From Bugula neritina (Eukaryota > Animalia > Bryozoa): 64,000 nt of DNA. Each line of letters opens with the position of its first letter. The stretch's first letter is position 1. Under the pieces are notes generated by a model that ran no database searches, was not told the origin of the DNA, and saw only the letters and a program-made list of their open reading frames with translations. The stretch lies in the NCBI GenBank assembly GCA_964035545.1, contig OZ037766.1, positions 19,146,767 through 19,210,766 on the forward strand. Direction: 5' to 3'. The translations under genes were made by a program, and so were the position numbers. Shown piece by piece: positions 4,356 to 55,303 of this stretch.

Positions 4356-4660
4356 TGTGGTGGCTCGTGGAGCTACCAGCAACACAATACGCAAGGTTGC
4401 GTATTGACCCGGAACAATGTATTAGCCAATTAGCTAGGCTGTTTTATAAGTAATAGTAGCCGCTTCGCGCTACTAGCTCAGTTGAGGATAGTGCTGAAAA
4501 CTAAATAGACGTGCGTATCATTACTGTTGTACATTGGATTTTTATTATGTATTCTTGTATTAAATATAACGATATCTACTCGACTTAACTGGTGAAGTTT
4601 CTCTAGTGTTAAATAGACTCTCTTGGTGACACATCAACCCTAAATCTGAAAACTATAACA
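4356..4660 (+). repeat. 5' LTR of element A
   Basis: Direct repeat of 11494-11798. Contains TAGCCAAT and TTTTATAAG promoter-like motifs. Confidence 0.97.
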
Positions 4661-4661
4661 G

Positions 4662-4679
4662 TGGTGGCAGCAGTGGGAT
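4662..4679 (+). promoter_or_regulatory. Primer binding site, tRNA-Leu
   Basis: TGGTGGCAGCAGTGGGAT, 1 nt after the LTR. One mismatch to the complement of the tRNA-Leu(AAG/TAG) 3' end TGGTGGCAGCGGTGGGAT. Confidence 0.9.
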
Positions 4680-4693
4680 AGTGTATATCAAAG

Positions 4694-5560
4694 ATGGAGA
4701 CTGAACATGCTAGAATGCAACCACCCCCAGTAGAAGGTGAGCGTAGAAATGCTGTTAATCCTGTGAATCGTGAAGGAGAAGAAGCTTATAGACATTGCTT
4801 GAAAGCTCCCACCTTTACTGGGTCGGAAGATGTCGAACAATTTATACAAGAATTTAGAGAGGTAATGGAAGTTGCTCAATGGCCGCATAGAGTGGCCCTT
4901 ATCAAATTGCGGAGGGCGGTGACGGAGCAAGCCAAGCCGTACGGAGTGGGAACGGACGTAGACGGCATACTGGCTGCGCTGCGGGCCCGTTTTGGCACCT
5001 CCGTCATAGACGCCAGGACCAAGCTGGAGAGATTGTGCCGCACCCCGCGGACCTCGCTACAAGAACATGCCGCGACGGTGAAGAAGCTGGCGCAGATTGC
5101 ATATAGCGATCTGCCAGCACAACACCAAGAGCGTTACACCTATGACGCCTTTGTCCAGTCCCTAAACGACCTGGGCCTAGACCATCACCTACGAGCTAAA
5201 GGGATAACCAGAATAGAGGATGCCCTGGAGGCTGGAGAAGCTTACCTGTTGGCTACCCAAATGCATCGAGCACAACGGAACCCACCAGTAGTTGGAGTCA
5301 GCGCTGCTCGGGCTACGACAAGCTCCGAAGCCCTCCCGCTGGAAGCCGAAGTGGACCGTATGGTAGAGATGCTGGGACAATTGGTGACCATTCTGGCCGG
5401 TGCTGGCCCCGGTCAGGCCTTGCGGATGCCCCCAACACCTGTGGGGCAAGGCTGGAGTAGCGCTGATCAGGACCAGGGACAGAAAGGACGACCCCAATAC
5501 CAGGGGGCGTTAAACTGTCACGGCCCGCGGACACTCTCCCTCCCCGCGGGCCGCAACTAA
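4694..5560 (+). CDS. gag: Gag of element A (capsid-like; knuckle degenerate)
   Basis: First ORF after the PBS. APTFTGSEDVEQFIQEF...W...LRARFG is homologous to the gags of B and C. Confidence 0.92.
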   Translation: METEHARMQPPPVEGERRNAVNPVNREGEEAYRHCLKAPTFTGSEDVEQFIQEFREVMEVAQWPHRVALIKLRRAVTEQAKPYGVGTDVDGILAALRARFGTSVIDARTKLERLCRTPRTSLQEHAATVKKLAQIAYSDLPAQHQERYTYDAFVQSLNDLGLDHHLRAKGITRIEDALEAGEAYLLATQMHRAQRNPPVVGVSAARATTSSEALPLEAEVDRMVEMLGQLVTILAGAGPGQALRMPPTPVGQGWSSADQDQGQKGRPQYQGALNCHGPRTLSLPAGRN

Positions 5561-5570: not shown

Positions 5571-8500
5571 TGGAACACGCCGTCGTCTGTCCGTACGGAC
5601 CCGGCGGAACATTCTACCCGAGTGGCAGGTACCACGCAGGACTAGTAGGCCCGCACAACGGCCCAGTACCTTTTCCCTGCCACTCGCTAACCGGTTTCAC
5701 CGGTTACCTCGGGAGGAGGAGCCCGCCACTGAAATGGAGCCAGAAGGCCCAGTGGAGAGGCCCAAACCCCGCCGGCACCAACCTCGCCGCCGGAAGCCCC
5801 GTAAACCACGGGTGGAACCCCCGCCGTCCTGTCAAACCAGGACAGCACATGCGGGGGGGGTGAAAGTACAACCACATGGAGAGAGCTATTTCCTACCCGG
5901 AAAGGTGGCCGGCAACGCCGTCACTTTCCTGCTCGACTCCGGTTGTACTACCAACCTTCTCAGCCGTAGAGTCTTTGAGGCACTGCCCCGCCGGGACAGG
6001 GATAGAGTACGACCGTATACTGGAGAACATGGCACCCTGGCAGACGGGTCATGTATCCCCTTTTATGGTATTATCGAGCTCCCTGGGCGTGTCCGAGATC
6101 AGGCTGTACAGGAGACCTTTATCATAGGTCAACTGGAGGAAGATGCTATCCTCGGCATGCCCTTCTTGAAGCAACACCAGTGCCGAATAGATTTTAGTAA
6201 GTCGGTGGTGCTGATGGGCGGGCGAGAACTCGCCTGTGTGGATAAGTTTGGGCGTCCTCTGGTGGGCGGTGTTCAGGTAGTTCGGAACTGCACCGTACCC
6301 GGACGCTCCAGAGCTACTATCCACTGCCGAGTGAACAGCAACCGGATAGCCAGGCTCGGGGTCGTTGAAAGCGCGCACGAAAAGATCCAACTCGCCAGTA
6401 GTTTAAACCGACTAACTGAGCGAGGGGAGGTCTTAGTGCAGTGCGTCAACCCCTTTACCGAGCCCATTGAGCTCCCAGCTGGGTCAATGCTGGGCCGGTT
6501 CCACTCCGTCCAGGAAGAGGACGTGGGCCCGTCGCTGGGTGACGCGACGGAGGCACCCCCTCGACACCCTATTCAGGGACGAGGGGCAGTCCCGACACAT
6601 CTCCGGGAGTTATACGAAACAGCCAGTGGCGGCTGCGCGAGTAACAGAGAACGCCAAGCTATGGCCAAGTTACTACGCGACTACGGTGATGTGTTCAGCA
6701 GCGGGGAGAATGACGTGGGACTGACTGGAATTGTCAGACACGAAATACCGCTGACTGCAGGGACAGTCCCTGTCCGGCAGCCCACGCGCAGGCTGGGGCC
6801 GGAGAAAGAGAAGGAGGTTAGCCGACAAGTACGGGATCTTCTGGACCGGGGACTGATAGAGCCCGCCCATAGTGCGTGGAGCTCGCCAGTCGTACTGGTC
6901 CGGAAGAAAGACGGCAGTTGGCGGTTCTGTGTGGACTACCGCAAACTCAATAGCGTAACCATACAGGACGCCTACCCTCTACCTCGTATTGACGAGTCAT
7001 TGGACGCCCTAGCCGGCAGCAAGTACTTCAGTACGTTAGACTTGCTAAGCGGCTATTGGCAGGTTCCTCTGAGTCCCGACGCCCAGGAGAAAGCGGCGTT
7101 TATCACCAGAGACAGTTTGTGGAAGTGGAAGGTGCTGCCCTTCGGGTTAACCTCCGCCCCAGCCACCTTCCAGAGGCTGATGGAACAAGTCCTTAGCGGA
7201 CTCCATTGGAAGACACTGCTGGTCTACCTCGATGATGTCATCGTAATCTCTCCAGACTTCGAGACACATGTCAGTCGTCTGCAGGAGGTTTTCGAGAGAC
7301 TCCGAGGTGCCGGTCTTAAGCTCAAACCTTCCAAGTGCGCTCTATTGCAGCCGGAGGTCAAGTACCTGGGGCACGTTGTCGGTCGAAACGGCGTGGCAAC
7401 GGATCCCGAAAAGGTACGGGCAGTAGAAGACTGGGTCACCCCCCAAGACTTGACCGGACTCCGGGCTTTCTTGGGGCTGGTAGGGTATTACAGGCAATAC
7501 ATACCAGACTTTGCGGGCATAGCCCAGCCGTTAAACCGGCTTACCGCAAAGGGAGTGACGTGGCAGTGGACTCCAGTCGAACAAGAAGCGTTCGACCGCC
7601 TCAAGGGCTGCCTCCTAACGGCGCCCATCTTGGCCTACCCAGACCCCACTCTGGAGTACATCCTAGACACAGACGCCAGTGACCAGAATGTTGGCGCTGT
7701 GCTGTCGCAAGTGCAGGAAGGCCGAGAAGTAGTAGTAGCCTACTACAGCAAGTCTCTCTCTCCCGCTGAACGAAATTACTGCACTACCCGCAAGGAGCTG
7801 CTGGCAGTAATCAAGTCAGTGAAGCACTTCAGACCATACCTATATGGCAGGAAGTTCCGGCTGCGTACGGATCATGCCTCGCTGATCTGGTTGTGCAGGA
7901 GAGCAGAGCCCTCCAGTCAGGTCGCCCGGTGGCTCGAAATCCTAGCTGAATTCTCGTACCGGATCGAACACCGACCGGGCAAGAGACACAGCAATGCAGA
8001 TGGGTTGAGTCGCCGACCTGACGGAGGTTGCAAACAGTGTCTCAACATCGAGAGGAGGGATGGAGGTCCCCCACGATGCGAGTTGGAGACGCTGGCTCAT
8101 CACGGAGCACCGTTTGACTGGGATCAAGGTCAACTCAGGCAAAGAGTTGATGAGTCCCCGGAGGATGTACAAAACCTCCGCGCCAACCCTGTACTGGCCG
8201 GTAATGTTCGAGAGCTGAAGAAGCTCCAAGAAGAGCTGCCGGGAGTCGTGGCAGACATCTACCGGGCCAAAAGGGAAGGGCGACGACCCAGCGAGGAACG
8301 CATACGACAGGGATGCGCCGAGTTCCGGCTATACTGTCAGCGTTGGGACTCGCTGCGGATCGGGCAGGATGGGTTGCTAACCATCTCGCTAGCTGCCAGC
8401 GGCAGACACCCGGAAAGGAAGAGGGTAGTCTGCCCCACAGCCATCCGCCGTGAGTTGATTTGGGATACTCACAAGCAGGCTCACGCAGGGGTCAAGCGAG

Positions 8501-10134
8501 TGATATCCAAATTACGACTCCGGTGGTATTGGCCGCAGATGGAGCGTGACGTCCGGCTCAGAGTCAAACAGTGTGAGATCTGCCAGGCCAGTAAGCATAG
8601 CCGCCCCCCTGGTGAAGCAGGACGGCGGAGGCTATATGCTGGTAGGCCCTGGCAAGTGGTCGCTGTAGACCTGGTCGGACCCATGCCCCTGACCCCCAGA
8701 GGCAATAATTGGATCCTAGTACTAACCGACCACTTTACTAGGTGGGCGGATGCTCTGGCTATCCCAGATGCATCAGCCCCAACAGTGGCCAGGGCACTAG
8801 ACCAACATGTATTCTGTTATTTTGGGCTTCCCGAACAGATACACTCTGATCAAGGCGCTCAATTCCAGTCTCAACTGATGAGCGACCTTTGCCACCTCTG
8901 GGGAGTAAATCAGAGCAGGACCACCCCCTACCACCCTCAAGGTAACGGGGTGGTGGAGCGCAACAACCGGATGCTAGGTGATGCGCTCCGGAGTCTCCTC
9001 CTTGGACGAGGTCAAGAGGAATGGGATACGGTGTTGCCGCAAGTCATGCGTGCATACCGTAGCACCCCACACACCAGTACTGGTGAGACCCCAAACCTCT
9101 TGATGCTCGGGAGAGAGACTCGTGTCCCTGACCATCTCACCTATCACGTTCCAGAGCAGGATAACTCAGTCCATGAGTATGCCAGTGAACTAGTGGAACG
9201 GATGAAGGCCGCACACGAGATACTGCGCCAACAGCAGTGGAAGGTGCGGCACGAAGATTCCGATGAACCACCCCTCTATCAAAGAGGAGATAAGGTGTGG
9301 ATGGTCAATTACCGTAGGCGCCGCGGACAGGCTGATAAGCTGAAGCCTAAGTTCGTAGGCCCCTACGTGGTCGTCGAGGCTATGCCCAATCATACGTACA
9401 AGATTGAGCGCTCAGGACAGGTGTCTATCCAGAATGAGTCTCGCTTGAAACCGTATTGGGCTAGCCCTGACGGAGTGGGAGAAGCCCCCCCGTTGTTAGA
9501 GCCCAGGAGGCAGACAACGACGCGCGGGCGACGGCGGCATGGACCTGAATACGAAGTGGTCATACCGCGGGAGGAAAACTTGGTGAGAGAGGAGCGGCAG
9601 CTTTTGTCAACAGAAGCGTGTCCGCCACCGCCAAGTCTAATTCCATCACTTCCAGAAACTGAGCCGGTTCCGGAAGTGCAAACCCCCACGGAGGGAGGGG
9701 CTCCATCCGGAGAACAAGAAGAGGTGACCACTAACGGTGAAGTAGAGACGCCATTAGAGGCCCCTACTAACGAACCGGCAAGTGTGTCACCCCCCCTAGA
9801 GAGGGGACAGCGTACGAGGAAGCCCCCACCGTATTTGAAAGACTTCATATGTGACTGCATTAGAAGCGGCGCACATGAAAGTCTAGGGGAAAACCGTACG
9901 ATGAAATGTTGGAGTTGTGAACCCCACGCAAATATCAACTTTTGCGAGGGCGGAATAGTGGGAGGAATTAATGCGCGTAAAGCAAATAGTTCCGACCTCG
10001 TGCCTCAGAAACGATGCTCAGCCTTTTCTTATGCTGACATCGCCAAAGGCAGACGTATCTCACAACCAGCTCCAACCTTACCAAGAACGTTGAGTATGGA
10101 CATTAATACCGAGTTCCCAGGTAAGCCAGTATAA
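5509..10134 (+). CDS. pol: Pol polyprotein PR-RT-RNaseH-IN (first ATG 5734; probably expressed by -1 frameshift from gag)
   Basis: LLDSG protease; FCVDYRKLN, LPFGL, YLDD RT; LDTDASD..ELLA..TDH..ADGLSR RNase H; HHCC; DDE integrase; GPY/F module. No stops over 1466+ aa. Confidence 0.97.
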   Translation, partial: VKLSRPADTLPPRGPQLKEYGGTRRRLSVRTRRNILPEWQVPRRTSRPAQRPSTFSLPLANRFHRLPREEEPATEMEPEGPVERPKPRRHQPRRRKPRKPRVEPPPSCQTRTAHAGGVKVQPHGESYFLPGKVAGNAVTFLLDSGCTTNLLSRRVFEALPRRDRDRVRPYTGEHGTLADGSCIPFYGIIELPGRVRDQAVQETFIIGQLEEDAILGMPFLKQHQCRIDFSKSVVLMGGRELACVDKFGRPLVGGVQVVRNCTVPGRSRATIHCRVNSNRIARLGVVESAHEKIQLASSLNRLTERGEVLVQCVNPFTEPIELPAGSMLGRFHSVQEEDVGPSLGDATEAPPRHPIQGRGAVPTHLRELYETASGGCASNRERQAMAKLLRDYGDVFSSGENDVGLTGIVRHEIPLTAGTVPVRQPTRRLGPEKEKEVSRQVRDLLDRGLIEPAHSAWSSPVVLVRKKDGSWRFCVDYRKLNSVTIQDAYPLPRIDESLDALAGSKYFSTLDLLSGYWQVPLSPDAQEKAAFITRDSLWKWKVLPFGLTSAPATFQRLMEQVLSGLHWKTLLVYLDDVIVISPDFETHVSRLQEVFERLRGAGLKLKPSKCALLQPEVKYLGHVVGRNGVATDPEKVRAVEDWVTPQDLTGLRAFLGLVGYYRQYIPDFAGIAQPLNRLTAKGVTWQWTPVEQEAFDRLKGCLLTAPILAYPDPTLEYILDTDASDQNVGAVLSQVQEGREVVVAYYSKSLSPAERNYCTTRKELLAVIKSVKHFRPYLYGRKFRLRTDHASLIWLCRRAEPSSQVARWLEILAEFSYRIEHRPGKRHSNADGLSRRPDGGCKQCLNIERRDGGPPRCELETLAHHGAPFDWDQGQLRQRVDESPEDVQNLRANPVLAGNVRELKKLQEELPGVVADIYRAKREGRRPSEERIRQGCAEFRLYCQRWDSLRIGQDGLLTISLAASGRHPERKRVVCPTAIRRELIWDTHKQAHAGVKRVISKLRLRWYWPQMERDVRLRVKQCEICQASKHSRPPGEAGRRRLYAGRPWQVVAVDLVGPMPLTPRGNNWILVLTDHFTRWADALAIPDASAPTVARALDQHVFCYFGLPEQIHSDQGAQFQSQLMSDLCHLWGVNQSRTTPYHPQGNGVVERNNRMLGDALRSLLLGRGQEEWDTVLPQVMRAYRSTPHTSTGETPNLLMLGRETRVPDHLTYHVPEQDNSVHEYASELVERMKAAHEILRQQQWKVRHEDSDEPPLYQRGDKVWMVNYRRRRGQADKLKPKFVGPYVVVEAMPNHTYKIERSGQVSIQNESRLKPYWASPDGVGEAPPLLEPRRQTTTRGRRRHGPEYEVVIPREENLVREERQLLSTEACPPPPSLIPSLPETEPVPEVQTPTEGGAPSGEQEEVTTNGEVETPLEAPTNEPASVSPPLERGQRTRKPPPYLKDFICDCIRSGAHESLGENRTMKCWSCEPHANINFCEGGIVGGINARKANSSDLVPQKRCSAFSYADIAKGRRISQPAPTLPRTLSMDINTEFPGKPV

Positions 10135-10151: not shown

Positions 10152-11225
10152 ATGGAAACGGGCTCGATGCCAGTAGATTCTGAACTAATTCAGCAGATTG
10201 AATCAGAATTACTGGGAACCACGTTTCATGTGAATGACGATGAAGACACTGTAATGGCCGATGGTCTGTTAGACCTGGAGCTAGACACTGTTCTTGGTCA
10301 GTCCACACATGATTCACCAGTTCCTCGAGTGCATTCCAAAAGCAGTGACTCCCAGGCTAGCAACGGTCGACAGTCACTAGAATTAGGTTGTAAAGATCCA
10401 CCGCGATCTAACACTAATTCTACTTTTGTAGACACACTCGCGCCCGTCTCTCCGGGCATGCCTTCTCTAGAGATGGCGTGGGACTCAGAGCCGGCCCCAA
10501 CAACTTCTACCACCAGGAAACTGCCACCCCAGTTGGAAGCAACCTCCAACTGGATTACCCCTGCCACAGAGAGAGAGATCAGGACCCATCAAGGAGGTGA
10601 GGGTAATCGTGAATGCAACCTCTGCCAGCAGCGATTCACGACCCACCGCAGACTAAAAGTACACTTGCCGCAACACTACATCACCACTTTCTGCCCTTGC
10701 GGAGAATATAGCTACAATCGTGATTACCTGTTGCGGCACCAACGTACTATGCAGTGTTATCAAGGGCATGTCTATGAAGTAGACGAATCATCCTATCCTG
10801 CCTTTCTCAACGCCATCAAACCACTCATCACTGACTCAGCTCGGCTATCTCGCCTGGAGCAAGGCTTCCCTTCCCCGCGACCCATCATCTCTAAAGCCGC
10901 AGATAAACCTACACAGTCTACTAACTCTCCACCTCACAGTCCTATACGCATGCCGCATACCTTTCCTCGTGTCGTACTACAGAGAGTAGACACAAATGCG
11001 TATACACTCCCTCCTCCCCTTCCATCCTCAGAGCGGAAAAGACACAGGCAGCCAACTTCCTCTCGCTCGTCCCCCTGGGCCCGTAACCTACGTGAGGTAG
11101 AAGCTAGGGCGCATGACTTGGAGCAAGAAGTGTACAGGCTGGCCCCACGGGTACAGGCAGCATCCAGTGAACTCAAATACTTACAGGAGTCTATTAAACG
11201 CATGAAGCGTGCGGCCCGCAGTTAA
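10152..11225 (+). CDS. ORF3 of element A: zinc-finger / PxVxL / coiled-coil protein (not env)
   Basis: 357 aa. C-x2-C-x3-F-x5-L-x2-H-x3-H followed by C-x-C-x12-H-x5-C (10614-10757). Homologous ORFs occupy the same position in B and C. Confidence 0.9.
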   Translation: METGSMPVDSELIQQIESELLGTTFHVNDDEDTVMADGLLDLELDTVLGQSTHDSPVPRVHSKSSDSQASNGRQSLELGCKDPPRSNTNSTFVDTLAPVSPGMPSLEMAWDSEPAPTTSTTRKLPPQLEATSNWITPATEREIRTHQGGEGNRECNLCQQRFTTHRRLKVHLPQHYITTFCPCGEYSYNRDYLLRHQRTMQCYQGHVYEVDESSYPAFLNAIKPLITDSARLSRLEQGFPSPRPIISKAADKPTQSTNSPPHSPIRMPHTFPRVVLQRVDTNAYTLPPPLPSSERKRHRQPTSSRSSPWARNLREVEARAHDLEQEVYRLAPRVQAASSELKYLQESIKRMKRAARS

Positions 11226-11482: not shown

Positions 11483-11493
11483 GGAGGGGGCAG
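11483..11493 (+). promoter_or_regulatory. Polypurine tract of element A
   Basis: GGAGGGGGCAG abutting the 3' LTR. Confidence 0.85.
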
Positions 11494-11798
11494 TGTGGTG
11501 GCTCGTGGAGCTACCAGCAACACAATACGCAAGGTTGCGTATTGACCCGGAACAATGTATTAGCCAATTAGCTAGGCTGTTTTATAAGTAATAGTAGCCG
11601 CTTCGCGCTACTAGCTCAGTTGAGGATAGTGCTGAAAACTAAATAGACGTGCGTATCATTACTGTTGTACATTGGATTTTTATTATGTATTCTTGTATTA
11701 AATATAACGATATCTACTCGACTTAACTGGTGAAGTTTCTCTAGTGTTAAATAGACTCTCTTGGTGACACATCAACCCTAAATCTGAAAACTATAACA
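11494..11798 (+). repeat. 3' LTR of element A
   Basis: Matches 4356-4660 and is followed by the TSD GTAT. Confidence 0.97.
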
Positions 11799-39383: not shown

Positions 39384-41772
39384 TTTGACTTTTTCGAATG
39401 GCAAAATAAGCCCATTTACTGGATGCGGTTATGTAGTGTAATTTTGTGCCTGTTATTCAACATAATTTATTTTTTAGAGAAGTGTAAACACAAATTTCTT
39501 GTCCCCAAATAACATAGACTTGCAATATAATATCTCATTGTAATAGTTATTTGTACCTGAAATGGGCTGCTCTGGAGAATATGGAACTAACTAGCAAATA
39601 CCATTTTAGTTAGAAAGAAACGTCTGAAATTTTGGTAAAATACTTCTAATAATTAATTCTCAAGGTTCACAATGATGGGAAATTTGTTTGGGAATAAATT
39701 ATATCAGTTTTACAGCTGAAGCTTTTTAAGCAAAACTGCATCTTGTTGACAAAATGTTTGTAAGTCATTATTTGTGTGTTGCTGATTGTTATTCTGCTGT
39801 TTTACAATATTTTTTATAATTGTTAACAGAAACGCATTGTTTTGTAAAAATTTGTTTCCAACCCACTTGGACACATGAAGCTATTAATTTAATTTCATTA
39901 TGTAAAATAGTGCAAAAAGTATAAAAGTGTTGTGGTGTAATTCTTATTATGACAATTGCATAGTTGCTATTCAGTATATTCAAATAATTCAAATTTAGCT
40001 TTTAAAAATATTGAATTAATTGAATAAAATTGGTTTTGAAATTCCAGTGTCTTCAAACTAATGTACTAATATTAGTGAAAAATAGAAGTAGCAAAATGTA
40101 GGAAATAGAACAGCAATATGTCAAATATCTTGTGATTTTGACCAATTTTGAGTGTATATGGCAGTTAGTACTTATGACAATTAGCTGCGTTAAACTTTTG
40201 CTAAGGTTAGGAAAATGCTAGATATTTACTCTCCGTAATTGTATAAAACTTAATTGTAGCCAGCTGGGTGACAAAATTTTAGTTACAAAAGTCCCTCATA
40301 ATATAGGGGTGACGGGTGGGGGGGGCACAATGGTCATAGGGGTACAAAAAGCCGGTTAAACTGTGAGAGAACTTATTTAGTTAGAGTTGTAATTTTTTTA
40401 ATAAAAAGATACTGACATAATTTTTTAGCTATTGTAGTTTCAACACATACAGGGCATACATGTTGAAGAGGCTAGTCAAAAACTGTTTTTACCTACTTTT
40501 TGTAAATCTTTTATGTCATTGAAGCTTTATAACTTTTTACACTCAAAGGTAACAAGCCTAAATTTTACTGATATTGTTGCTATTTCTTGTCTCTACATTG
40601 CCTAACTAGTATAACAGCAAATTCCAAAATAAACTTTTCTTGAACCACATTTATTTTCAACTTGGCCATATGGGGCACAATAGACCACGCTGGCCAAGGC
40701 ACAATGGGCCACCTGATTCTTGCACCCTGTTCACTGTTTTTAGTTTGTTTGCCCAAAAAGTTAGATGAAATGTTAATAAAATCTATAGATATAGCCATTT
40801 CTGACCTTTTGTAAAGTATCAAAGACATCATGGTAAAACTACCAAACTACAATGTGAAGCTCCCGTAATAATATATACATCTGGTGAAGTTATCGCATTG
40901 CCATTTTATATATCATACAGAACACTCTGCTGCTGCTTCGAGTGGATAGTCAGGTATTCATTATACATTATATCATTGAGGGAATATACATATATTTGAC
41001 TAAAATAAAATCGGGTGTGGCTAAAATGGGTGGCCACCTGGTGTCGCGGGCCGTGACACCCATTTTAGTCAAAACCCCCCCTTATGACTAAAATGGGTGT
41101 CGCTGTAGTAATTCGTGCAATTACTGTGCGTGAATTCCTAGCTTGTAATTATAGTTTATGTATCCACATCAATAAAGGGCTTTCAATAAGATTAGACGAG
41201 ATTTATTTACTACTATATACAAATAAAGAGATATAAAAGCACACGGATTAAAACACTACATCTTTATTATTCTAGTACGCTCTCTCTATTACTTTATACA
41301 TCGCTGGGGTTATCACATGACGCGCTTCTTATTGGCTAGGAAGACTTGTGGACGCGCGTATCAAGTACTCACTACACCGCCCCCCCCCAACAGGAAGCCC
41401 ACCTTCCTGATAACACAGATACAGTTAGTACTAATACAAAAAAAATACAAAAAAACTATAAAACTGAGAGAGTGTGTGGTACATAAAAGAAAGAACATAA
41501 ATATATACAGTAAAAAAAATATAACAGTATAAACACAACACTATGACACTGACGGGAAAGGCACTTATAGGCGACGGCCCATAGGACTAAGAAATATACT
41601 TGTGGGTTACTATGAGATTGTCATACTGGACGATTGGTCGCTAGCACCGGACACGAGATAGAGGCTTTAGATGGAGAGGGCACCACCTGTGGTATAGTCA
41701 AGAGTGAGGGTAAGACGAGTAGGAAAAGGGGGGGTTTAGGGACTCCGTCTCAAGCATTTCCTTTCATTTGGG

Positions 41773-42831
41773 CTACAGAGGCAGAGAGAGTTCGGAGGCG
41801 GCGGCAGATACTCTCGGCGCCAACCTTTGTACTTCTTTCTCTAGTTCCCGTATCCGTTCTTCTGCTTCTCGTAAGTTACGGGCGGGGGCAGAGTGTCGAG
41901 AGGGAGATGAAGATAGCCAGCGTCGTTTGCGAGAGGGTCTAGGAGAAACGGAAGGGGAGGGACGCCATCGTTGGGGCACTTCGATGCGTCGTAGCACAAC
42001 TCTGGGTATAGAATCGGGACGCGGCACTGTGTGGGTGGGGGGTGATGAGCGGGGCATGGGTGGTTTCTTGAATCCGGGGGGTTTGGGGCAGGGTCCTTGT
42101 GTGATGGCCCTGGGTGCGGGGAACTCCTGACGCAGCCGTTCATAGCGAGTCGGGTCTGATATGAAGGGTCGGATGAGAGCAAGGAAGTGTGGGAAAGAGG
42201 GTTCGTCGACTTCATAAAGATGTCCAACATGACATCCCATGGTCCGCTGGTGACGGAGGATGTAGTCCCTGTGGTAACTATATTCACCACAGGGACAAAA
42301 GGTGGTGACATAATGTTGGGGGACGTGAACTCGGAGTCTTCGAGGGGTGGTGAAATGGAGTTGGCACAAGCGGCAGGTGGTGCGTTGGTCATCGCCTTTA
42401 TATTCTCGAATAAGTGCTTCTGTGTCCGGGGTAACCCAGCATGACTGGTTTAAGAGTACTTCCGGCAGTGTGACGGGGGTAGGTTCCTCGTTCCAAGCCA
42501 TTTCCAATGGCGGCATGTCACGGGGAAGAGGAGAAGGAGTGGTATCTAAAAGAGCAGAATTATTGTTAGATCGAGTGTGATCTTTACACCATAATTCTGA
42601 TGACAACCGACTGTTCCTAGTCTGAGAGTCATACATCTTTTTAGACGGCACTCGAGAGACTGTGTCGAGGCGTGTAGACTGACTAAGAAACATAGTGTCA
42701 AGCTCCAGATCTAGTAGATCGTCGGCCATTGTTATGTTCTCGTCGCCTTTCACGTAAGACTCAGTCTCCAGTAGTTCTGATTCAATCAGGGCAATTAAAT
42801 CAGCACTAACTGATGTTAGACCTGATTCCAT
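41773..42831 (-). CDS. ORF3 of element B (last residues frameshifted relative to C)
   Basis: 352 aa with CRLC..H..H and CPC..H..C fingers, PRVVLRRIE and a coiled coil. Confidence 0.85.
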   Translation of the reverse strand: MESGLTSVSADLIALIESELLETESYVKGDENITMADDLLDLELDTMFLSQSTRLDTVSRVPSKKMYDSQTRNSRLSSELWCKDHTRSNNNSALLDTTPSPLPRDMPPLEMAWNEEPTPVTLPEVLLNQSCWVTPDTEALIREYKGDDQRTTCRLCQLHFTTPRRLRVHVPQHYVTTFCPCGEYSYHRDYILRHQRTMGCHVGHLYEVDEPSFPHFLALIRPFISDPTRYERLRQEFPAPRAITQGPCPKPPGFKKPPMPRSSPPTHTVPRPDSIPRVVLRRIEVPQRWRPSPSVSPRPSRKRRWLSSSPSRHSAPARNLREAEERIRELEKEVQRLAPRVSAAASELSLPL

Positions 42832-42896
42832 GAATGGGAGTGTTAGGTCAAAGCAAGCTTACCTGGGAACCCGGTATTTGTAATCATACTCAGCGT

Positions 42897-45800
42897 TCAA
42901 GCTTGGATGTCAGTGGATTGAGTTTGGATACGTCTGCCCTTGACAACGTCAGCGTATGAAAAGGCTGGGCAGCGTGGTTGCTGCGCACGGCTGGAACTAT
43001 TTGTCTCGGGCGTAGTAGTTTTGCTTACTAATCCGCCTTCGCAAAAGTTGGTATTCCCAAGGTGTTCACAACTCCCACGTTTTGCTGCCAGTCTTTCCGC
43101 ACGGTGCCCAGCCAGACTTTCATAACTGCCGTTTCTAACGCGGTCACATACGAAGTCTTTCAAGTATGCTGGGGGTTGTCTAGTACGCTGTCCCCGTTCC
43201 AAGGGAGGTGACGTATTAGCTGGGGAGGGGGGTGTAGTTGTTGGTCGGGGCGGTGTACTCACGGGTGGGCTATTTTGGACAGAGCGCTCCAACTTGTACG
43301 CATGATTGGACATCGCCTCAACTACCACGTAGGGTCCCACGAACTTTGGCTGGAGCTTAGCCGCTTGTCCTCGACGCCTACGGTAGTTGATCATCCACAC
43401 CCAGTCCCCAGTTCGATAGAGGGGTGGTTCCTGAGAGTCCCCCTGCCGTACCTGCCACTGCTTTGCTCGCAGTATTTCGTGTGCGGCCTTCAGGTCCTCT
43501 ATTAATTTGTGGGCATACTCGTGGATGGTATAGTCTTGTTCTGGGATGTGGTATGTGAAGTGGTCGGGCACTCACGTCTCTCGACCAAGCATCAGGAGGT
43601 TAGGGGTTTCCCCGTACTAGTGTGTGGTGTACTACGATAGGCCCGCATGACTTGCGGTAGTACCGTATCCCATTCTTCCTCACCCCGGCCGAAGAGCAGA
43701 CTGCGGAGTGCGTCGCCCAACATGCGGTTGTTGCGTTCTACCACCCCGTTGCCCTGAGGGTGGTATGGAGTGGTCCTGCTTTGGTTTACTCCCCAGAGGC
43801 GGCAGAGGTCACTCAACAGTTGAGACTGGAATTGAGCCCCCTGGTCTGAATGTATCTGCTCGGGTAGTCCGAGGTAGCAGAATACATTTTGGTCTAGCAC
43901 CCTGTCCACCGTCGGGGCGGACGCATCTGGGATAGCCAGGGCGTCCGCCCACCGGGTAAAGTGGTCGGTTAATACTGGTATCCAACTGTTTCCTCTGGGG
44001 GTGAGAGGCATGGGTCCGACTAGGTTAACAGCTACCACCTGCCATGGCCTTCCAGCATATAGCCTATGCCGTCCCGCTTCGCCAGGGAGACGGCCATGCT
44101 TGCTGGCCTGGAAAAAATTTCGCATTGTTTGACTCTAAGCCGTACGTGTGCCACATGCCGGGCCAGTACCACCGGAGCTGTAACTTGGAGAGCACCTTTT
44201 TTACCCCGGCGTGGGCCTGTTTGTGGGTGTCCCATACTAACTTCCGGCGAATGGCGGCTGGGCAGATCACTCTCTCTCTCCCGTACTGGCTGTTACAGGT
44301 GGCCACTGTGATGGTCAGCAGACCATCTGGCCCGATCCGCAGGGAGTCCCAACGTTGGCAGTACAACCGTAACTCGGTGCATCCCTGCCGCAGTTGTTCT
44401 TCGCTGGGTCGTCGCCCCTCCTTCTTGGCCAGATACACGTCGGCTACTACCCTTCGGAGGTCCTCTTGGAGTCTTCGTAGCTCTCTGACGTTATCAGTCA
44501 AGACAGGATTGGCACGGAGGCTCTGGATAGTCTCTGGGGGTGTATCGGCCTTCTGTAGGAGTTGACCCTGGTCCCAGTCATACTCTTTTCCAGGGTGGTC
44601 CAGTGCTCTCAACTCGGGTTTTGGGGGACCCCCGTCCCTCTTCTCGATGTTGAGGCACTGTTTACACCCCTCGTCCGGCCACCGGCTCAGTCTGTCAGCA
44701 TTGCCGTGCTTCTTACCGGGCCGATGTTCGGTCCGGTAAGAGAACTCGGCCAGGACCTCGAGCCATCGAGCGACTTGGCTGGACGGTTCTGCTCTCTTGC
44801 ACAACCAAATCAAGGAGGCGTGGTCGGTCCGCAAGCGGAACTTCCTGCCGTATAGATAAGGTCTAAAGTGCTTCACCGACTTGATTACTGCCAGCAATTC
44901 CTTTCGGGTAGTGCAGTAATTCCGTTCGGTGGGTGAGAGAGACTTGCTGTAGTAGGCCACGACTACTTCACGGCCCTCCTGCACCTGGGACAGCACAGCG
45001 CCGAGGTTTTGGTCACTGGCGTCGGTATCTAGGATATACTCCAGGGCAGGGTCTGGGTAGGCTAGGATGGGGGCCTCTAGTAGGCGGCCCTTAAGGCAGT
45101 CGAACGCTCTCTGTTCGACGGAAGTCCACTGCCAGGTCACCCCCTTTGCGGTGAGCCGATTTAACGGCTGCGCTACCCCCGCAAAGTCTGGTATGTATTG
45201 CCGGTAATACCCTACCAGCCCCAGAAGAGCCTGTAGCCCGGTCAAATCCTGGGGGGTGACCCAATCTTCTATAGCTCGTACCTTTTCAAGATCCGTCGCC
45301 ACACCGTGACGGCCGACGACGTGCTCCAGGTACTACACCTCTGGCTGCAAGAGAGCGCACTTGGAGGGTTTGAGTTTCAGATTGGCACCTCTGAGTCGTT
45401 CGAAGACCTCCCGCAGACGACTGATGTGTGTCTGAAAGTCTGGGGAGATCACGATGACGTCATCGAGGTATACCAGCAGTGTCTTCCAGTGGAGTCCACT
45501 GAGGACCTGTTCCATGAGCCTCTGGAACGTGACGGGGGCAGAAGTCAGTCCAAAGGGTAGGACTTTCCACTTCCATAAGCCGTCCCGCGTGATGAACGCC
45601 GCTTTCTCCTGGGAGTCGGGACTGAGGGGGACCTGCCAGTAACCGCTCAACAAGTCTAGCGTACTGAAGTACTTGCTGCCGGCTGAGGCGTCCAGAGATT
45701 CGTCGATCCTGGGTAAGGGGTAGGCGTCCTGTATGGTCATGCTATTTAGTTTGCGATAATCCACACAGAACCGCCAACTGCCGTCTTTCTTTCGGACCAG

Positions 45801-47995
45801 GACGACCGGCGAGCTCCACACACTATGTGCTGGCTCTATGAGGCCGCGGTCCAAAAGATCCCGAACTTTTTGGTCGACCTCCTTTTCCTTCTCGGGTTCC
45901 AGCCTCCGTGTGGGCTGGCGAATAGGGGCAGTCCCTGCAGCCAGCGGTATCTCATGACGAACGGCCGTGGTCAGGCCGACGTCATGGTCCCCGCTGCTGA
46001 ACACGTCGCTATAGTCACGTAGCAACTGAGCCATGGCCTGACGCTGTCCGTTGCCCGCGCAGCCGTCACACGCTGCCTGGTATAGCTCTTAGACGTGTTG
46101 TGGGACGGTCCTTCGCCTAACTGACGGGCTCTGTTGGGGACCTTCCGTCGCAGCTCCCAGCGACGGCTCTATATCCTCCTCCTGGATGGGGTGGAAGCGG
46201 CCCAGCATGGATCCTGAAGGTAATTGTACCGCTTCGGAGAAAGGGTTGACACACTGCACCAAGATCTCTCCTCGGTCAGTCAGCCGGTTAAGACTGCTGG
46301 CGAGTTGGATTCTTGTGTGCGCATCTTCGACAACCCCTAACCCCGAGAGTTGGCTATTGTTCACTCTACAGTGAACGGTAGCCTGGGAGCGGCCGGATAT
46401 AGTACAGTTCCGTACTACCTGCACGCCTCCCGCTAGGGGACGACCGAACTTGTCGACACAGGCGAGTTCCCTGCCGGCCATCAGCATGGCTGACTTGCTA
46501 AAGTCAATACGGCACTCGTGTCTCTTCAAAAACGGCATCCCCAGTATAGTGTCCTCTTCGAGTTGGCTGATGACGAAGGTTTCCTGGATAGCCTGGTCGC
46601 GGACGCGCCCAGTCAGCTCTATGATACCGTAAAATGGAATCCGTGACCCGTCAGCTAGGGTGCCTGGTTCCCCGGTATAGGGAGCTAAGGCTCCCCTCTT
46701 CCTATAGGGGAGGGTGTCGAAGACCCGACGGCTGAGGAGATTAGTGGTACACTCGGAGTCTAGCAGAAAGGTGACAGCTTTGCCAGCCACCTTCCCTGGC
46801 AAGAAGTAGCTACCTCCGTGAGGCTGTACCCGTACTCCCCCAGCGTGCTCGGTCTCGGCCGAACGAGGCTGTGCCCGTTTGTTCCGCGGTTTGCGGGACC
46901 GGTGAGAGTTTCCTTGCGGAGGGGTGTATTGATCCCCTCCGATGCCCTGAGGGGCCTCGCTGGTCGACTTCATTTCTGGTAGCGTGCCGAAGCGGTTAGT
47001 GAGAGGTAGAGAGAAAGGTTCTTGTGGTCGTCCTGGTTGGTTGGTTCGACAAGGTGTTTGCCACTGGTGGGGGGCATACCGCTGCGTCCGTACGGACTCC
47101 TGGCGGTATCCACCCCGTTTTTTTCTCTGCTTTGGCCCGCGGAGCTCTGGGGGCCTCCGGGGGGCATGGGGTTTCTGCTGCTTCTTAAGTCGTGGGCAGC
47201 TCGAGCGGCGGTGTCCCCTGGTGCCGCATCCCCAGCAACGTATAGTGGGTCTGGGGGTTTTTACTGCTGGTCTCTTGTACTCCCTGGGGTTGCTGTATGT
47301 TATGGTCGCCACCAACTGTCCCAGTTTAGTCATCAAGCGGTCGACCTCTATCTCCACGGGGGGCTAGCGGTAGCGGCAGCTATTCGGACTGGGCGGTCTG
47401 GTTCTCTAGAGGTCTGCGGGATAGTCTCCATCACCTTGTAGAGTTGCTCGGCTCTTAGGTAAGCCTCGCTTTCTTGGATTGCAGCCTCTATCGTGGTCAC
47501 TCCCTTCGCTTGTAACTGGTGGTGGAAGTTCAAATTGTTGAGGGATTGTACAAAGGTCTCGAATGTATAGCGCCATCTGTGTGTTTCTGGCAGATCGCTA
47601 TACGCAATCTGTGTCAGTCTCTGCACCAGAGTAGCGTGGTCCGGGAGCGGTGTACATGTTTTGCGGAGCAGTCCTTGCAAACGGGCTTTGGCGTCGGCAA
47701 CAGGTATGCCAAAACGGGCCCGTAGCGTAGCAATGATCCCCTCTACGCTAGGTCTCCACCCGTACGGCTTGGCTTGTTCCGTCAGTGCCATTTGTAGCTT
47801 CATCAGGGCTACCCTTGGCGGCCATCTTGTAATGGCTGCAACTTCACGGAATTCCCGAATAAATTGTTCAACATCTTCAAGGCCCGTGAAAACGGGAGCC
47901 TCTAATGTATTCTTATATGCCTCCTCTTCGGCCTCGAGAGGGTTTATGGTAATGTCTCGCTCACCTTCTTCAGTTGAAGCTGCACTTTCGGCCAT
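42897..47995 (-). pseudogene. gag-pol of element B, fragmented
   Basis: ORF pieces 47348-47995 (gag), 46089-47357 (CCHC knuckle, PR), 45333-46034 (RT), 44064-45302 (RH), 43592-44125 (IN), 42897-43571. Internal deletion near 43275 relative to C. Confidence 0.93.
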
Positions 47996-49049
47996 GATGT
48001 TCTAATACTTTCCCATCGTCTTCATATAGTAGCTAGTGATCCCACCGCTGCCACCACTGTAGTAATTCGTGCAATTACTGTGCGTGAATTCCTAGCTTGT
48101 AATTATAGTTTATGTATCCACATCAATAAAGGGCTTTCAATAAGATTAGACGAGATTTATTTACTACTATATACAAATAAAGAGATATAAAAGCACACGG
48201 ATTAAAACACTACATCTTTATTATTCTAGTACGCTCTCTCTACTACTTTATAAATCGCTGAGGGTTATCACATGACGCGCTTCTTATTGGCTAGGGAGAC
48301 TTGTGGACGCGCGTATCACGTACTCACTACATCGCGAACAATTTTCGTTTTATTTTTAGACAGTTGTGACCATTGAAATCATTTTTAAACTATTATTCAG
48401 TGAATAATGAACATTTCACAATTGTTTAAACAAAAAAAACATAAATAAATAATGACAAAATTGAAATAATTATAACGAAAATAGAACTTATCAAGAGTTA
48501 TCTTTCCTCATCAAAAATTTAATTTTCACCTAATTTTACTGTTATAGTTATGATCATAGACATGTTAACTTATGAAACATATAATTTAAACTATTAAAAA
48601 CACTTTGAGCAATATTAACAAACAAAAATGTCTAGAAAATGTGAAAATAAAACTAAAAATTTTCGCGACACCCATTTTAGTAAGAACACCCACGAATGAC
48701 TAAAATGGGTGTCACAGTGATTATTGCTTTTTTTAGCTTTTTGGCAATTCTTGTTGCTAAATTGGTTGTTGATCAAAACTTTAGAAAAACTCTAATATAT
48801 AATAACTGTTTCACCCCAAATGACAGTAGTATTAAATAATAATTTACAATAATAATAAAATATAATAAAAACCAAAACTATCAGTGACACCCCCTAGAGT
48901 TATCTTCCCTGAGTTCTTAGTTTTGTTTTTATGATTTTTCCCTAATATTTGTAAGTATTAAAAATTTTAATAATTTTGATTAGTAAAAGCAAGTAAAAGT
49001 TTCAACATGACATAATTTATAGTATCCAAAACCGCCCAAAAAGCTCAAA

Positions 49050-49267: not shown

Positions 49268-49602
49268 TGTAATGGGGCGTGGAAAACACGTCCCACGTGC
49301 CCTCGACCAATCAAACACTCATTAGTATTCCGGCTGTGTTAAGCCACGCAGAACGAGACTGGCATATTCATATAGTGACTAGCAGTGATGTAAAACAGTA
49401 GTAAACAGTGATACACCATATATTTTCCTCATGTTATATTTGCTACAATAAAGATCCTAATAGATAGTACTCTTGTGAATTGTCGTTGACATAATACACT
49501 AGTTGGACTCACTAGAAAAACCCACGTAACTATTGTGCGTCGCACAACAGTGGTGGCAGTGGTGGGATGCATTCTAGTTGAGACAATGAAAAGACGAGAA
49601 AC

Positions 49603-52600
49603 ATGACAGAACATACAACACAACACCCGGAAGGTGAGCCAGCCAATTTCTTGCATATGGAAGAGGTGTATAGAGATAAACTGACCGCTCCCATTTTCAC
49701 GGGTGTAGAGGATGTGGAGCAATTCATCGAAGAATTCCACGGAATAGTAGATGTCGCTCAGTGGCCGCCTCGAGTAGCCCTCGTCAAACTGCGAGAGGTA
49801 TTGACGGAGCGAGCTAGACCGTTCGGACAGGGACGGAGCATAGCGGAGATATTCACTACACTGCAGAGCCATTTTGGCACCTCCGCTCTGGAAGCTAGAG
49901 CCTATCTACAAGTGCTACGCCAAGAGGAAGACACACCACTCCACGACCACATTACCCTAGTGAAGAGACTGGCACGGAGCGCGTACAGCGACCTGCCAAA
50001 AACACACCGACAAAACTTTACCCTTATTGACTTTATGCAGTCTCTAAATGATGTGGGCCTCTACCATCAACTACAGGCGAAAGGATGACCACCCTGGAAA
50101 GTGCCTTGCAAGTCGGAGAAGACTATCTCCGGGCCAAACAGCTGTATATGTAGAAAACCGAAGGTACGCGAGTCACTGCGGAGGCTACCCAGCCACTCGG
50201 AAGCGAGATGGGCCGGCTGAGCACCAAGCTGAAACAGATGGCAAAGACCCTCACCAATGCCGAGCCCCCCAACCGAAGACCCAGGAGAGAGACCTCGAAG
50301 GTGGCTGCCCTGTGTGACAAAGGCAACAGGCCGGGACATCTCCGCTCGAGGTGCCCCCGATTCAAAGGAAGGCCCCGCGGGCCGGAAAAGGAGCAACCAC
50401 GGGCCGGACGCCGCCCGGTTTCTAAGCGGACTCCGCAGGACACCCTCCGTGAGTGGCAGATACCACGACGGACCAGTCGACCCAATGGGCAACGGGAACC
50501 GTTCATATTACCAATCACCAACCGCTGCAGCCAGCTACCAGAGACGGAGCTGGCTGGCGAGGTCCACCTGGACATCGGAGGGGAACCAAACACCTCTCCG
50601 CCTAAGAAGCGACACAAACAAATCACCAAACGGAAACCACGCCATTTGACCGAGACTACGCATGCTGGGGAAGTAAGGGTGCAACCACATGGAGAGAGCT
50701 ACTTCCTACCCGGGAAGGTAGCAGGCAAAGCTGTCGCGTTCTTGCTAGACTCCGGTTGCAACACAAATCTCCTCAGTAGACGAGTCTTCGATGCCCTCCT
50801 TCCCAAAGCGAGGAGGGAATTAGCTCCCTACACCGGGGAACCTGGCACCCTTGCAGGCGGGTCGCGTATCCCCTTCTACGGTGTTATGGAGCTGCCTGGC
50901 CGCGTTCGCGAGCAGGCCATCCAGAAAACATTTATCCTCAGCCAGCTGGAAGAAGATGCCATCCTGGGGACGCCGTTCTTAAAACGACACCAATGCCATA
51001 TGGACTTCCATAAGTCCGCCGTGCTAATGGCCGGCAAGGAGCTTTTCTGTGTCGATAAGTTTGGCCGTCCCCTGGTCGGGGGCGTGCAGGTGGTACGTCA
51101 CTTTACGGTACCAGGCCGCTCCCGGGCGACCATTCACTGCAGAGTGAATGACTGTCAACTCTCTGGACTAGGGTTCGTTGAAGGAACGCACACGAGAATC
51201 CAACTCGCCAGCAGCTTGAACCGGCTGACTGATCGAGGGGAAATCTTGGTGCAGTGCGTCAACCCCTTTTCAGAGTCGGTAACACTACCGTCCGGATCCC
51301 TACTAGGCCGTTTCCACATGGTCCAGGAAGGAGATATAGGGCTGTCGCTGGGCGAGGCGACGGAGGGTCCCCAAGAGCGCCCGTCTGTACGGCGGGGGAC
51401 CGTCCCAGAACACGTCCAAGAACTGTACCAGTCGGCCTGCGAAGGCTGCGCGGGCAACAAGGAGCGCCAAGCTATGGCCCAGTTGCTACGCGAGTATGGG
51501 AACGTGTTTAGCAGCGGAGACCATGACGTAGGCCTGACTAGAGCCGTCCGTCATGAAATACCACTAGCTGCCGGGACTACCCCTATCCGTCAACCCACGA
51601 GAAGGCTGGGGCCAGAGAAAGAGAAGGAGGTCAGCCGACAAGTCCGGGATCTTCTGGACCGCGGCCTCATAGAGCCTGCACATAGTGTGTGGAGCTCGCC
51701 GGTCGTTTTGGTCTGGAAGAAAGACGGCAGTTGGCGGTTTTGTGTGGATTACCGCAAACTTAATAACGTAACCATACAGGACGCCTACCCTCTACCTCAG
51801 ATTGACGAGTCTTTGGACGCCTTAGCCGGCAGCAAGTACTTCAGTACGTTAGACTTGCTGAGCGGCTACTGGCAAGTCCCCCTCAGCCCCGACGCCCAGG
51901 AGAAAGCGGCGTTCATCACCAGAGACGGGCTGTGGAAGTGGAAGGTACTGCCCTTCGGGTTAATTTCCGCTCCCGCCACTTTCCAGCGGCTCATGGAACA
52001 AGTTCTCAGCGGACTCCACTGGAAGACACTGCTAGTCTACCTCGATGATGTCATCGTAATCTCTCCAGACTTTCCGACCCATGTCAGCCGTCTGCGGGAG
52101 GTCTTCGAGCGACTCAGAGGTGCCGGTCTCAAGCTCAAACCTTCCAGAAGCGCTCTCTTGCAGCCGGAAGTGAAATACCTGAAGCACGTCGTCGGCCGTA
52201 ATGGCGTGGCGACGGACCCCGACAAGGTACGGGCTGTGGCAGACTGGGTCACCCCCCAGGATTTGACCAGACTCCGGGCCTTCCTGGGGCTGGTAGGGTA
52301 TTACCGGCAATACATACCAGACTTTGCGGGGGTAGCGCAGCCGTTAAATCGGCTCACCGCAAAGGGGGTGACCTGGCAGTGGACTTCCGTCGAACAGAGA
52401 GCGTTCGACTGCCTCAAGGGCCGCCTACTAGAGGCTCCCATCCTAGCCTACCCAGACCCTGCCCTGGAGTATATCCTAGATACCAACGCCAGTGACCAAA
52501 ACGTCGACGCTGTGCTGTCCCAGGTGCAGGCGGGCCGCGAAGTAGTCGTGGCCTATTACAGTAAGTCTCTCTCATCCACCGAATGAAATTACTGCACTAC

Positions 52601-55238: not shown

Positions 55239-55303
55239 ACGCTGAGTATGATTACAAATACCGGGTTCCCAGGTAAGCTTGCTTTGACCTAACATTCCTA
55301 CTC

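Follow-up and report, generated by a model that had tools for sequence, protein, structure and literature searches.

A zinc-finger third ORF in the env position of Ty3/Gypsy elements of Bugula neritina, a candidate element-encoded nuclear regulator

Introduction

Complex retroviruses of vertebrates carry spliced accessory regulators towards the 3' end of their genomes, including foamy-virus Tas, HTLV Tax and HBZ, and HIV Tat and Rev; these Retroviridae also have env, and the regulators are not C2H2 proteins. Among them, Tas binds DNA as an activator and possesses both an acidic domain and an NLS.

Within Ty3/Gypsy, CERV of the C. elegans element Cer1 is a spliced, nuclear, Rev-like regulator (PMC10309623), so that the absence of dedicated trans-regulators in Gypsy, implied by the original prediction for the locus studied here, does not hold. 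Other third ORFs of Gypsy elements have different products: those of bdelloid rotifers encode GDSL esterases, DEDDy exonucleases and transmembrane/coiled-coil proteins (PMC5408684), and errantivirus env genes encode fusogens (PMC13524379). For VANC of the Arabidopsis VANDAL transposons, reviewed in PMC6719617, demethylation via tandem motifs has been demonstrated, and the passages of that review consulted here give small RNAs and VANC, both from plants, as the only TE products that counter host silencing. For animal transposons it is still being asked whether any of them encodes a protein able to counteract or sidestep silencing by the host.

Here we analyse a 64,000-nucleotide stretch of B. 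neritina DNA (contig OZ037766.1; the window) in which three Gypsy elements, A, B and C, carry an ORF (ORF3) in the env slot, and we weigh the proposal that its product is a regulator of the element itself.

Results

Elements in the window

Element A has the LTRs, primer-binding site (PBS), polypurine tract (PPT), TSD, gag and PR-RT-RH-IN order of pol that define Ty3/Gypsy elements (Table 1). With identical LTRs, a TSD and open gag, pol and ORF3 frames, it is a young, intact element. Its PBS is presumably of the tRNA-Leu type; a literature search with the PBS sequence identified no clade. In run X2, 6,354 contigs were placed on element A and covered 30/30 bins, so the family appears very abundant in the host, and none of the listed indels on the element (12 of 13) fell in gag, pol or ORF3. 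The pol frame runs ~75 codons beyond the usual integrase end (9898-10134; homologous in B and C). This tail is selectively kept (dN/dS 0.37) and holds a conserved AFSYAD..KGRRI block, possibly an internal exon.

All three elements had been described as full-length, and only A and B proved regular. Element B has LTRs ~98% identical to each other and a frameshifted pol, and its ORF3 stops early through a frame-changing deletion near 41790 that alters the last residues. Element C is a chimera, recombinant or mis-assembled: the LTR at its 5' end (49268-49549) shows no relation to the B-type one at its 3' end, a TSD is lacking, its identity to B is 83.6% in 5' pol and 91-93% beyond an AT-rich insert, and dS between B and C is 0.57 in 5' pol compared with 0.165 in ORF3. 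The junction lies near this ~270-bp insert, at about 52907-53170, and the 5' LTR and gag represent a third family. The window thus holds two ORF3 lineages and three gag/5'-LTR lineages. The AT-rich flanks and the homologues suggest an invertebrate animal as host.

Other mobile DNA also occurs in the window. Fragment D (region 1-2480, the fragment itself at 1-2297) is a fourth, more distant Gypsy element with pol ~73% identical to that of A; it is cut after pol by another element, which carries a gag-like ORF at 2583-3452 (-), and no ORF3 remnant of D was found in the window. MITE-like short repeats with internal inverted repeats occur at 25944-27286, 41015-41103 and 48333-48715, B being inserted in one copy. 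Other remnants include a LINE-like RT (15810-16979, +), a distant Gypsy pol (19494-21444, +) and a Copia-type gag (58026-58634, -). An ORF at 13660-14193 (-), which had no Pfam match, is one that we take to resemble a Penelope/GIY-YIG endonuclease.

Table 1. Positions of the elements, genes, signals and protein segments in the window
Feature	Position	Strand	Remarks
Element A 5' LTR	4356..4660	+	305 bp, TG..CA; 4-bp TSD GTAT
Perfect 10-bp-arm inverted repeat in A LTRs	4385..4406, also 11523-11544	+	candidate dimer site
PBS, element A	4662..4679	+	type common to B, C and distant locus L042
gag, element A	4694..5560	+	288 aa
Putative splice donor D1	4733..4742	+	MAG/GTRAG; exon end 4736, gag phase 1; B 47965, C 49633
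pol, element A	5734..10134	+	PR-RT-RH-IN, 1466 aa, Pfam
Putative splice donor D2	10117..10126	+	exon end 10120, pol phase 1; B 42863, C 55272
ORF3, element A	10152..11225	+	357 aa
Acidic Leu-rich segment, A residues 7-45	10170..10286	+	net charge -12, activation-domain-like
Candidate acceptor YAG	10171..10173	+	ORF3 codons 7/8, phase 1; first AG after pyrimidine-rich stretch of A
Conserved core, A residues ~133-236	10548..10859	+	conservation, AlphaFold, fold searches
C2H2 finger (finger 1) in A	10614-10676	+	C155-x2-C158-x12-H171-x3-H175
C2HC finger (finger 2) in A	10692-10757	+
Linear motif PRVVLQRVD	10965..10991	+	PxVxL / alternating basic-hydrophobic strand; disordered linker
Basic patch RKRHR	11034..11048	+	likely NLS
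C-terminal long helix, residues 308-356	11073..11219	+	pLDDT ~90-97; likely coiled coil
PPT, element A	11483..11493	+
Element A 3' LTR	11494..11798	+	100% identity to 5' LTR
Element B	41104..48331	-	LTRs 48058-48331 and 41104-41376, TSD TCGC
ORF3, element B	41773..42831	-	352 aa
Element C	49268..57025	+	different-family 5' LTR/gag joined to B-type 3' half
ORF3, element C	55304..56392	+	362 aa
Element C 3' LTR	56753-57025	+	B-type

ORF3 is a gene under selection

ORF3 has the coordinates and lengths claimed for it and sits between pol and the PPT/3' LTR in all three copies. The LTRs of A are, as had been noted, unlike those of B and C; they are unrelated, while ORF3 of A is 54% identical to that of B and 51% to that of C. 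The three proteins align over their whole length and share the blocks already recognised, namely an acidic N-terminus, MP(S/P)LEMAW, both fingers, a basic patch and a C-terminal helix; the basic patch is present in each, but that of C reads HKRR and not RKRR.

Nei-Gojobori counting placed dN/dS of ORF3 far below 1: 0.20 between B and C (bootstrap 0.10-0.35; 26 nonsynonymous and 38 synonymous differences) and 0.12 between A and B (upper bound 0.25, with dS near saturation), compared with 0.09-0.14 for pol and 0.14-0.26 for gag. ORF3 is therefore a real gene under purifying selection. The claim that it lacks a transmembrane or signal segment also held, the maximal 19-residue Kyte-Doolittle values being 0.58, 1.11 and 1.23 for A, B and C, and the lack of a transmembrane segment argues that ORF3 is not env. 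No Pfam fusogen matched ORF3, nor was there a fusogen among the listed fold matches of its core.

ORF3 belongs to an old protein family

A search with a single ORF3 sequence retrieved 45 related proteins, none of them named, and a profile of the A, B and C proteins retrieved 261 representatives at E<=0.001, with no named protein among the best 150 of the 261. One of ten clusters looked up holds a named record, the B. neritina hypothetical protein KAF6040922.1, an ORF3 homologue on a 418-kb contig that is annotated as a host gene. The check for an already characterised TE ORF returned no named TE ORF and no Pfam family, and in the ESM Atlas only unnamed or C2H2 clusters matched. Finger matches to WIZ, from a search of 840-2395-aa proteins, were weak and were dismissed as single-finger similarity.

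Across 78 core sequences with <70% mutual identity, C155, C158, H171, H175, C181, C183, H196, V210 and D211 were kept in 72-77, the finger-1 ligands (C155, C158, H171, H175) in 75-77 and W134 in 66. A second very abundant subfamily (P0104, P0213-P0298; ~90 proteins, ~33% identical in the core) is short (~245 aa), with core and coil and little acidic N-terminus, and three proteins (P0050, P0075, P0159) contain two copies of the finger domain.

Scans with degenerate DNA patterns gave 115 matches (76 metagenome, 8 viral, 31 prokaryote). One of these, L042, is a strong homologue; L045 and L065 are weaker and lie outside any TE context, and the remaining matches were attributed to chance. A separate locus search in viral and metagenome contigs yielded no confirmed related locus. 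At L042 the domain lies in a 5'-open 726-aa ORF that ends just upstream of a PPT and a 720-bp LTR, and beyond the LTR are a PBS of the same type, gag and then the start of pol. Identity to A amounts to 35% in the core and 41% in gag (gag E 3e-34), indicating, from this one distant locus, that ORF3 has held the slot across deep divergence. Links at the protein level come in addition from P0161 and P0171 and from P0163/P0189 (see below). Several inverted repeats rich in CCGA/TCGG, with arms 8-10 bp long, lie in the L042 LTR (1598-2317) and might be bound by a dimeric protein.

Homologues down to ~25% identity, together with the same slot in a distant element, make recent capture of a host gene unlikely; the match of finger 1 to HIC2/SALL/ZBTB fingers makes it plausible that a C2H2 finger was captured long ago. 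These data also bear on the idea that ORF3 is an env-like or cell-to-cell transmission protein, or else a non-functional passenger taken from the host. Occupancy of the env slot, probable env-like splicing and the homologue annotated as a Bugula gene would fit it, but it has to contend with the missing hydrophobic segment, the nuclear-type fold and motifs, the strong purifying selection and the persistence of the slot at L042. We consider it extremely improbable and already largely refuted by selection and sequence.

The core is predicted to be a pair of zinc fingers

Residues 128-250 were modelled with AlphaFold from a 70-sequence alignment at pLDDT 93.8 and pTM 0.84, and the core is predicted to consist of a tandem zinc-finger pair flanked by additional strands and helices. 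It aligned only with tandem C2H2 pairs of DNA-binding proteins (ZBTB20, CTCF, Kaiso and ZBTB7A), with rmsd 2.3-2.7 A over 50-57 residues and low Z-scores of 3.2-3.7. Neither Foldseek, run against PDB and BFVD with a limit of E<=0.001, nor VIA-align, with a limit of Z>=5, returned a match, which does not prove a new fold.

Finger 1 fits both the C-x2-C-x3-F-x5-L-x2-H-x3-H spacing and the beta-beta-alpha fold, and matches HIC2/SALL fingers by profile (E 1e-7). It missed the Pfam C2H2 gathering score (15.6 vs 25.2 bits), nothing scored above the cut-off for ORF3 or its relatives, and 8-10 of 70 family members matched Pfam at E<=0.01. The second finger, proposed as C-x-C-x12-H-x5-C, is present in A as C181-x-C183-x12-H196-x5-C202, but its fourth ligand varies across the family and is a C at the A-type spacing in 12 of 50 subfamilies.

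Over the same 50 subfamilies the finger-1 helix is basic, with R/K at +2 in 46 and R at +3 in 38, and position +6 is hydrophobic (V/I/L) in 33, which is unusual for base contact; finger 2 retains R and D/E at +1/+2, with a variable last ligand. A and B/C have almost the same recognition helices, and the rest of the family has similar ones, though the LTRs are unrelated, so that recognition of a shared short motif, RNA or the nucleic-acid backbone would fit better than LTR-specific reading. The helices thus fit nucleic-acid binding that is not obviously LTR-specific. No LTR motif common to A and B exceeded chance; a shared LTR hexamer (three copies in A, one or two in the 3' LTRs of B and C, none in the C 5' LTR) was also within chance.

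The arm length of the inverted repeat in the A LTRs was reached by 0/200 dinucleotide shuffles, and the L042 LTR, like that of A, has 10-bp-arm inverted repeats beyond chance. None beyond chance was found in the B and C LTRs (best arm 7, p 0.15-0.18).

Motifs outside the core

Apart from the core, the full-length model was ordered only in helix 308-356, with a weaker helix at residues 10-21. The acidic segment of A also contains one NES-like and one SIM-like pattern. Family-wide, acidic-hydrophobic (Leu/aromatic-rich) windows, defined by a heuristic threshold, occurred N-terminal of the core in 11/22 subfamilies vs 4.6 expected, compared with 2/15 C-terminal tails. NES-like patterns were not enriched in N-termini (6/22 vs 10.2 expected); one, M-x3-L-x2-L-x-L, lies at residues 35-44 in A, B and C.

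The linker (pLDDT<50) contains PRVVL(Q/R)R as a conserved island in the close family, and PxVxL occurs in 36 of the 59 close-family proteins that have a tail; family-wide it is not enriched (4/30 vs 3.3 expected). HP1 PxVxL motifs occupy disordered regions, and the HP1a consensus has 3-6 basic residues (PMC12526061), compared with two in the central 9-mer of the A motif. The same linker motif resembles LKIRL, through which the MLV integrase tail binds BET (bioRxiv 2020.09.21.306696), and the corresponding pattern [RK][VI]x[LVI]x[RK] was found in 5/30 vs 2.1 expected (p about 0.05). In distant relatives, [FY]xIP[KRL] occurred in 6/30 subfamilies vs 0.2 expected, for a pattern chosen post hoc, and looks like the SPT6-binding motif of SETD2: Set2/SETD2 bind Spt6 through YKIPK/YRIPK (PMC12851032). 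It is absent from A, B and C. K296 and R297 of the basic patch are invariant in the close family, and NLS-like patches were found in 19/30 vs 13.4 expected. Of 30 distant homologues picked by hand, 20 have a coil-like tail; a single cluster supplied two of these.

Taken together, the motifs favour a nuclear regulator that would touch chromatin and the transcription machinery. They could also be read in the opposite sense, with ORF3 on element DNA using its PxVxL and SIM-like motifs to bring in silencing that depends on HP1 and SUMO, as if a KRAB-ZFP and KAP1 had been combined in a single protein. The near-invariance of PxVxL in the close family suggests such self-repression, as do hydrophobic-acidic patches of SIM-like character, noticed by eye and uncounted, in A and in some of its relatives, and the fact that TE self-control is common (PMC6719617). 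However, both the SPT6-type motif and the acidic segments, which are activation-like, speak for activation, PxVxL is not enriched outside the close family, and the family's apparent abundance in the host does not suggest repression; we regard this reading as quite unlikely.

Splice signals point to a spliced ORF3 message

The sequence MAG/GTRAG occurs on the sense strand exactly twice in each of A, B and C, at homologous places, where shuffled sequences lead one to expect ~0.5. The first copy, D1, lies 10-14 codons inside gag and is identical at 10/10 nucleotides in the three elements while its flanks, from three gag lineages, are 27-46% identical; the second, D2, lies 31 nt upstream of the ORF3 ATG. 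The candidate acceptor ends at nucleotide 22 of ORF3 in A, B and C (in B and C another ends at nucleotide 10, in the same phase), and close homologues that start ME or MG have only P/S/A/L and D/V/A at residues 7/8, which are YAG-compatible. The common phase 1 of D1, D2 and the acceptor and the two perfect donors in three copies point to a spliced Gag-leader/ORF3 mRNA. ORF3 is thus likely to be expressed from spliced RNA and, given these signals, its protein probably does not start at the first ATG of the ORF. RNA run X1 (word share 0.15), which may be DNA, gave shallow contigs (depth 2-7) over parts of the element, 10877-11152 among them; these showed no joint and weigh neither for nor against splicing or expression.

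In B and C the pol frame stops 11 codons before D2, and a conserved ATG follows 8 codons before D2. In the stretch 10090-10126, which includes TGAGTATG as well as D2, A and B/C share 77-100% identity even though it follows the pol stop of B/C; this stretch could be a mini-exon with its own ATG.

Two perfect donors make the genomic RNA intron-containing, which raises the possibility of a Rev- or CERV-like exporter whose fingers would bind unspliced genomic RNA, whose coil would oligomerise and whose NES would direct export. The likely NLS together with the NES-like pattern conserved in A, B and C would suit this function, as would invariant basic helices directed at a target that is not LTR-specific. 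A precedent within Gypsy is CERV, which shares the N-terminus of Gag and has an NLS, an NES, a zipper and a Cys loop (PMC10309623). Nevertheless, acidic activation-like windows are enriched across the family where NES-like patterns are not, the fold is classical C2H2 in place of the H/M/G domains of CERV, and export leaves the chromatin- and elongation-type motifs unexplained. We judge an exporter unlikely.

Use of D2 in A would fuse Pol to ORF3. Chromodomains of chromoviruses steer integration to chromatin, and splicing at D2 (53-nt intron) or direct fusion might similarly add the fingers and the linker motif to Pol and thereby steer integration. The frame of A pol is open through D2, which is in pol phase 1; in two of 231 core-bearing proteins (P0161, P0171) a Pol-tail-like motif precedes the core in frame, in P0163/P0189 the finger domain is joined to a Gypsy protease, and the enrichment of the LKIRL-like pattern points the same way. 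Such a tether is very unlikely in our assessment, since the pol frames of B and C are closed before D2, the conserved gag donor D1 favours a separate subgenomic RNA and most homologues are stand-alone ORFs.

Discussion

We propose that ORF3 is a Gypsy accessory gene that likely specifies a nuclear, probably dimeric zinc-finger protein, which would bind the DNA of its own element and promote its transcription. A splice joining D1, within the gag leader, to the candidate acceptor in codon 7/8 of ORF3 would fuse a short Gag leader in frame to ORF3; the protein would enter the nucleus by its basic patch, dimerise through the C-terminal coil and bind the element's own DNA with its fingers. The acidic N-terminal segment would then activate transcription, the PxVxL-type strand might engage HP1 or a BET/ET-type domain and, in some distant subfamilies, an [FY]xIP[KR] motif could engage SPT6. 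The outcome would be a positive-feedback or anti-silencing loop, acting through the activating machinery or against heterochromatin, as with Tas or VANC.

That ORF3 is a transcriptional activator or anti-silencer is suggested by the selection on it, the tandem-finger fold, basic helices, acidic windows, SPT6-like and PxVxL motifs, NLS, coil and in-phase donors. Counted against it are the invariant helices, the hydrophobic +6 position, the lack of a shared LTR motif, the low fold Z-scores, the PxVxL motif that is unenriched family-wide and has just two basic residues in A, and the absence of the SPT6-like motif from A, B and C. On balance we give the activator or anti-silencer an even chance. 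The transactivator or anti-silencing factor originally proposed has stood as a non-env, nuclear-type zinc-finger protein, by selection, fold, homologues and motifs; the role itself is read from the motifs.

More tentatively, and with rather less than even confidence, we envisage a widespread and ancient invertebrate Gypsy clade that would carry on a spliced RNA a modular transcription factor with a new two-finger domain, acidic segment, coil and HP1/BET/SPT6-mimic motifs, the first anti-silencing or transactivator protein of an animal LTR retrotransposon and a counterpart of VANC and Tas. If true, this would place the element among the rare animal transposons that encode a transcription factor of their own. 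Being small, with defined motifs and one predicted junction, ORF3 is a concrete candidate on which animal TE anti-silencing can be tested directly. It also adds an unnamed zinc-finger domain family, and the Bugula record is a caution that ORFs of this kind may enter annotations as genes of the host.

ORF3 shares some features with each of several known systems. By analogy with Tas, Tax and Rev, it appears to be a 3' accessory gene with splice signals, in an env-less Gypsy element whose two conserved donors and predicted spliced regulatory gene give it a layout like that of complex retroviruses; a viral fold search detected no homology of the core to viral regulators at E<=0.001. Like ZBTB, SALL, HIC2 and CTCF proteins, it has a finger 1 recognisable by profile and, weakly, their two-finger geometry. 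Unlike in classical tandem C2H2 proteins, finger 2 is C-x-C...H-x(3-11)-C/H, there is no TGEKP-type linker, and extra N- and C-terminal elements make a single ~105-aa domain without a full-length match.

Like the bdelloid ORF3s and errantivirus env genes, ORF3 is a third ORF that follows pol; a spliced message is typical of those genes and is predicted for ORF3. The terms zinc finger and C2H2 do not occur in the accessible parts of PMC5408684 and PMC13524379. No C2H2 ORF3 in Gypsy was found in the literature searched, which included few subscription papers and excluded the repeat-family databases Repbase, Dfam and GyDB, so that ORF3 is apparently an old and undescribed accessory gene family of Gypsy. 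Like VANC, it may be an accessory TE protein that works in trans on the family encoding it; unlike VANC, which belongs to a plant DNA transposon (PMC6719617), it is a zinc-finger protein of an animal LTR retrotransposon.

Like ORF3, CERV (PMC10309623) is a Gypsy-encoded nuclear-type protein; its ORF was formerly taken for env, and it is made from a spliced mRNA that shares the Gag N-terminus (predicted for ORF3), with NLS and NES (candidates in ORF3), a zipper or coil and a Cys-rich metal site. CERV differs in being 517 aa long, with H, M and G (GTPase-like) domains, a C4 loop and no homologues outside nematodes, and in exporting RNA while being dispensable for transcription. ORF3 is set apart by its C2H2 and C2HC pair, acidic segment and C-terminal coil, and since the ordered parts of its model are the two-finger core and one helix, it leaves no room for a CERV-type G domain. 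Gypsy-encoded nuclear regulators are thus already known from CERV; what ORF3 would add is a transcription-factor-like anatomy in a slot, and with predicted splicing, like those of CERV.
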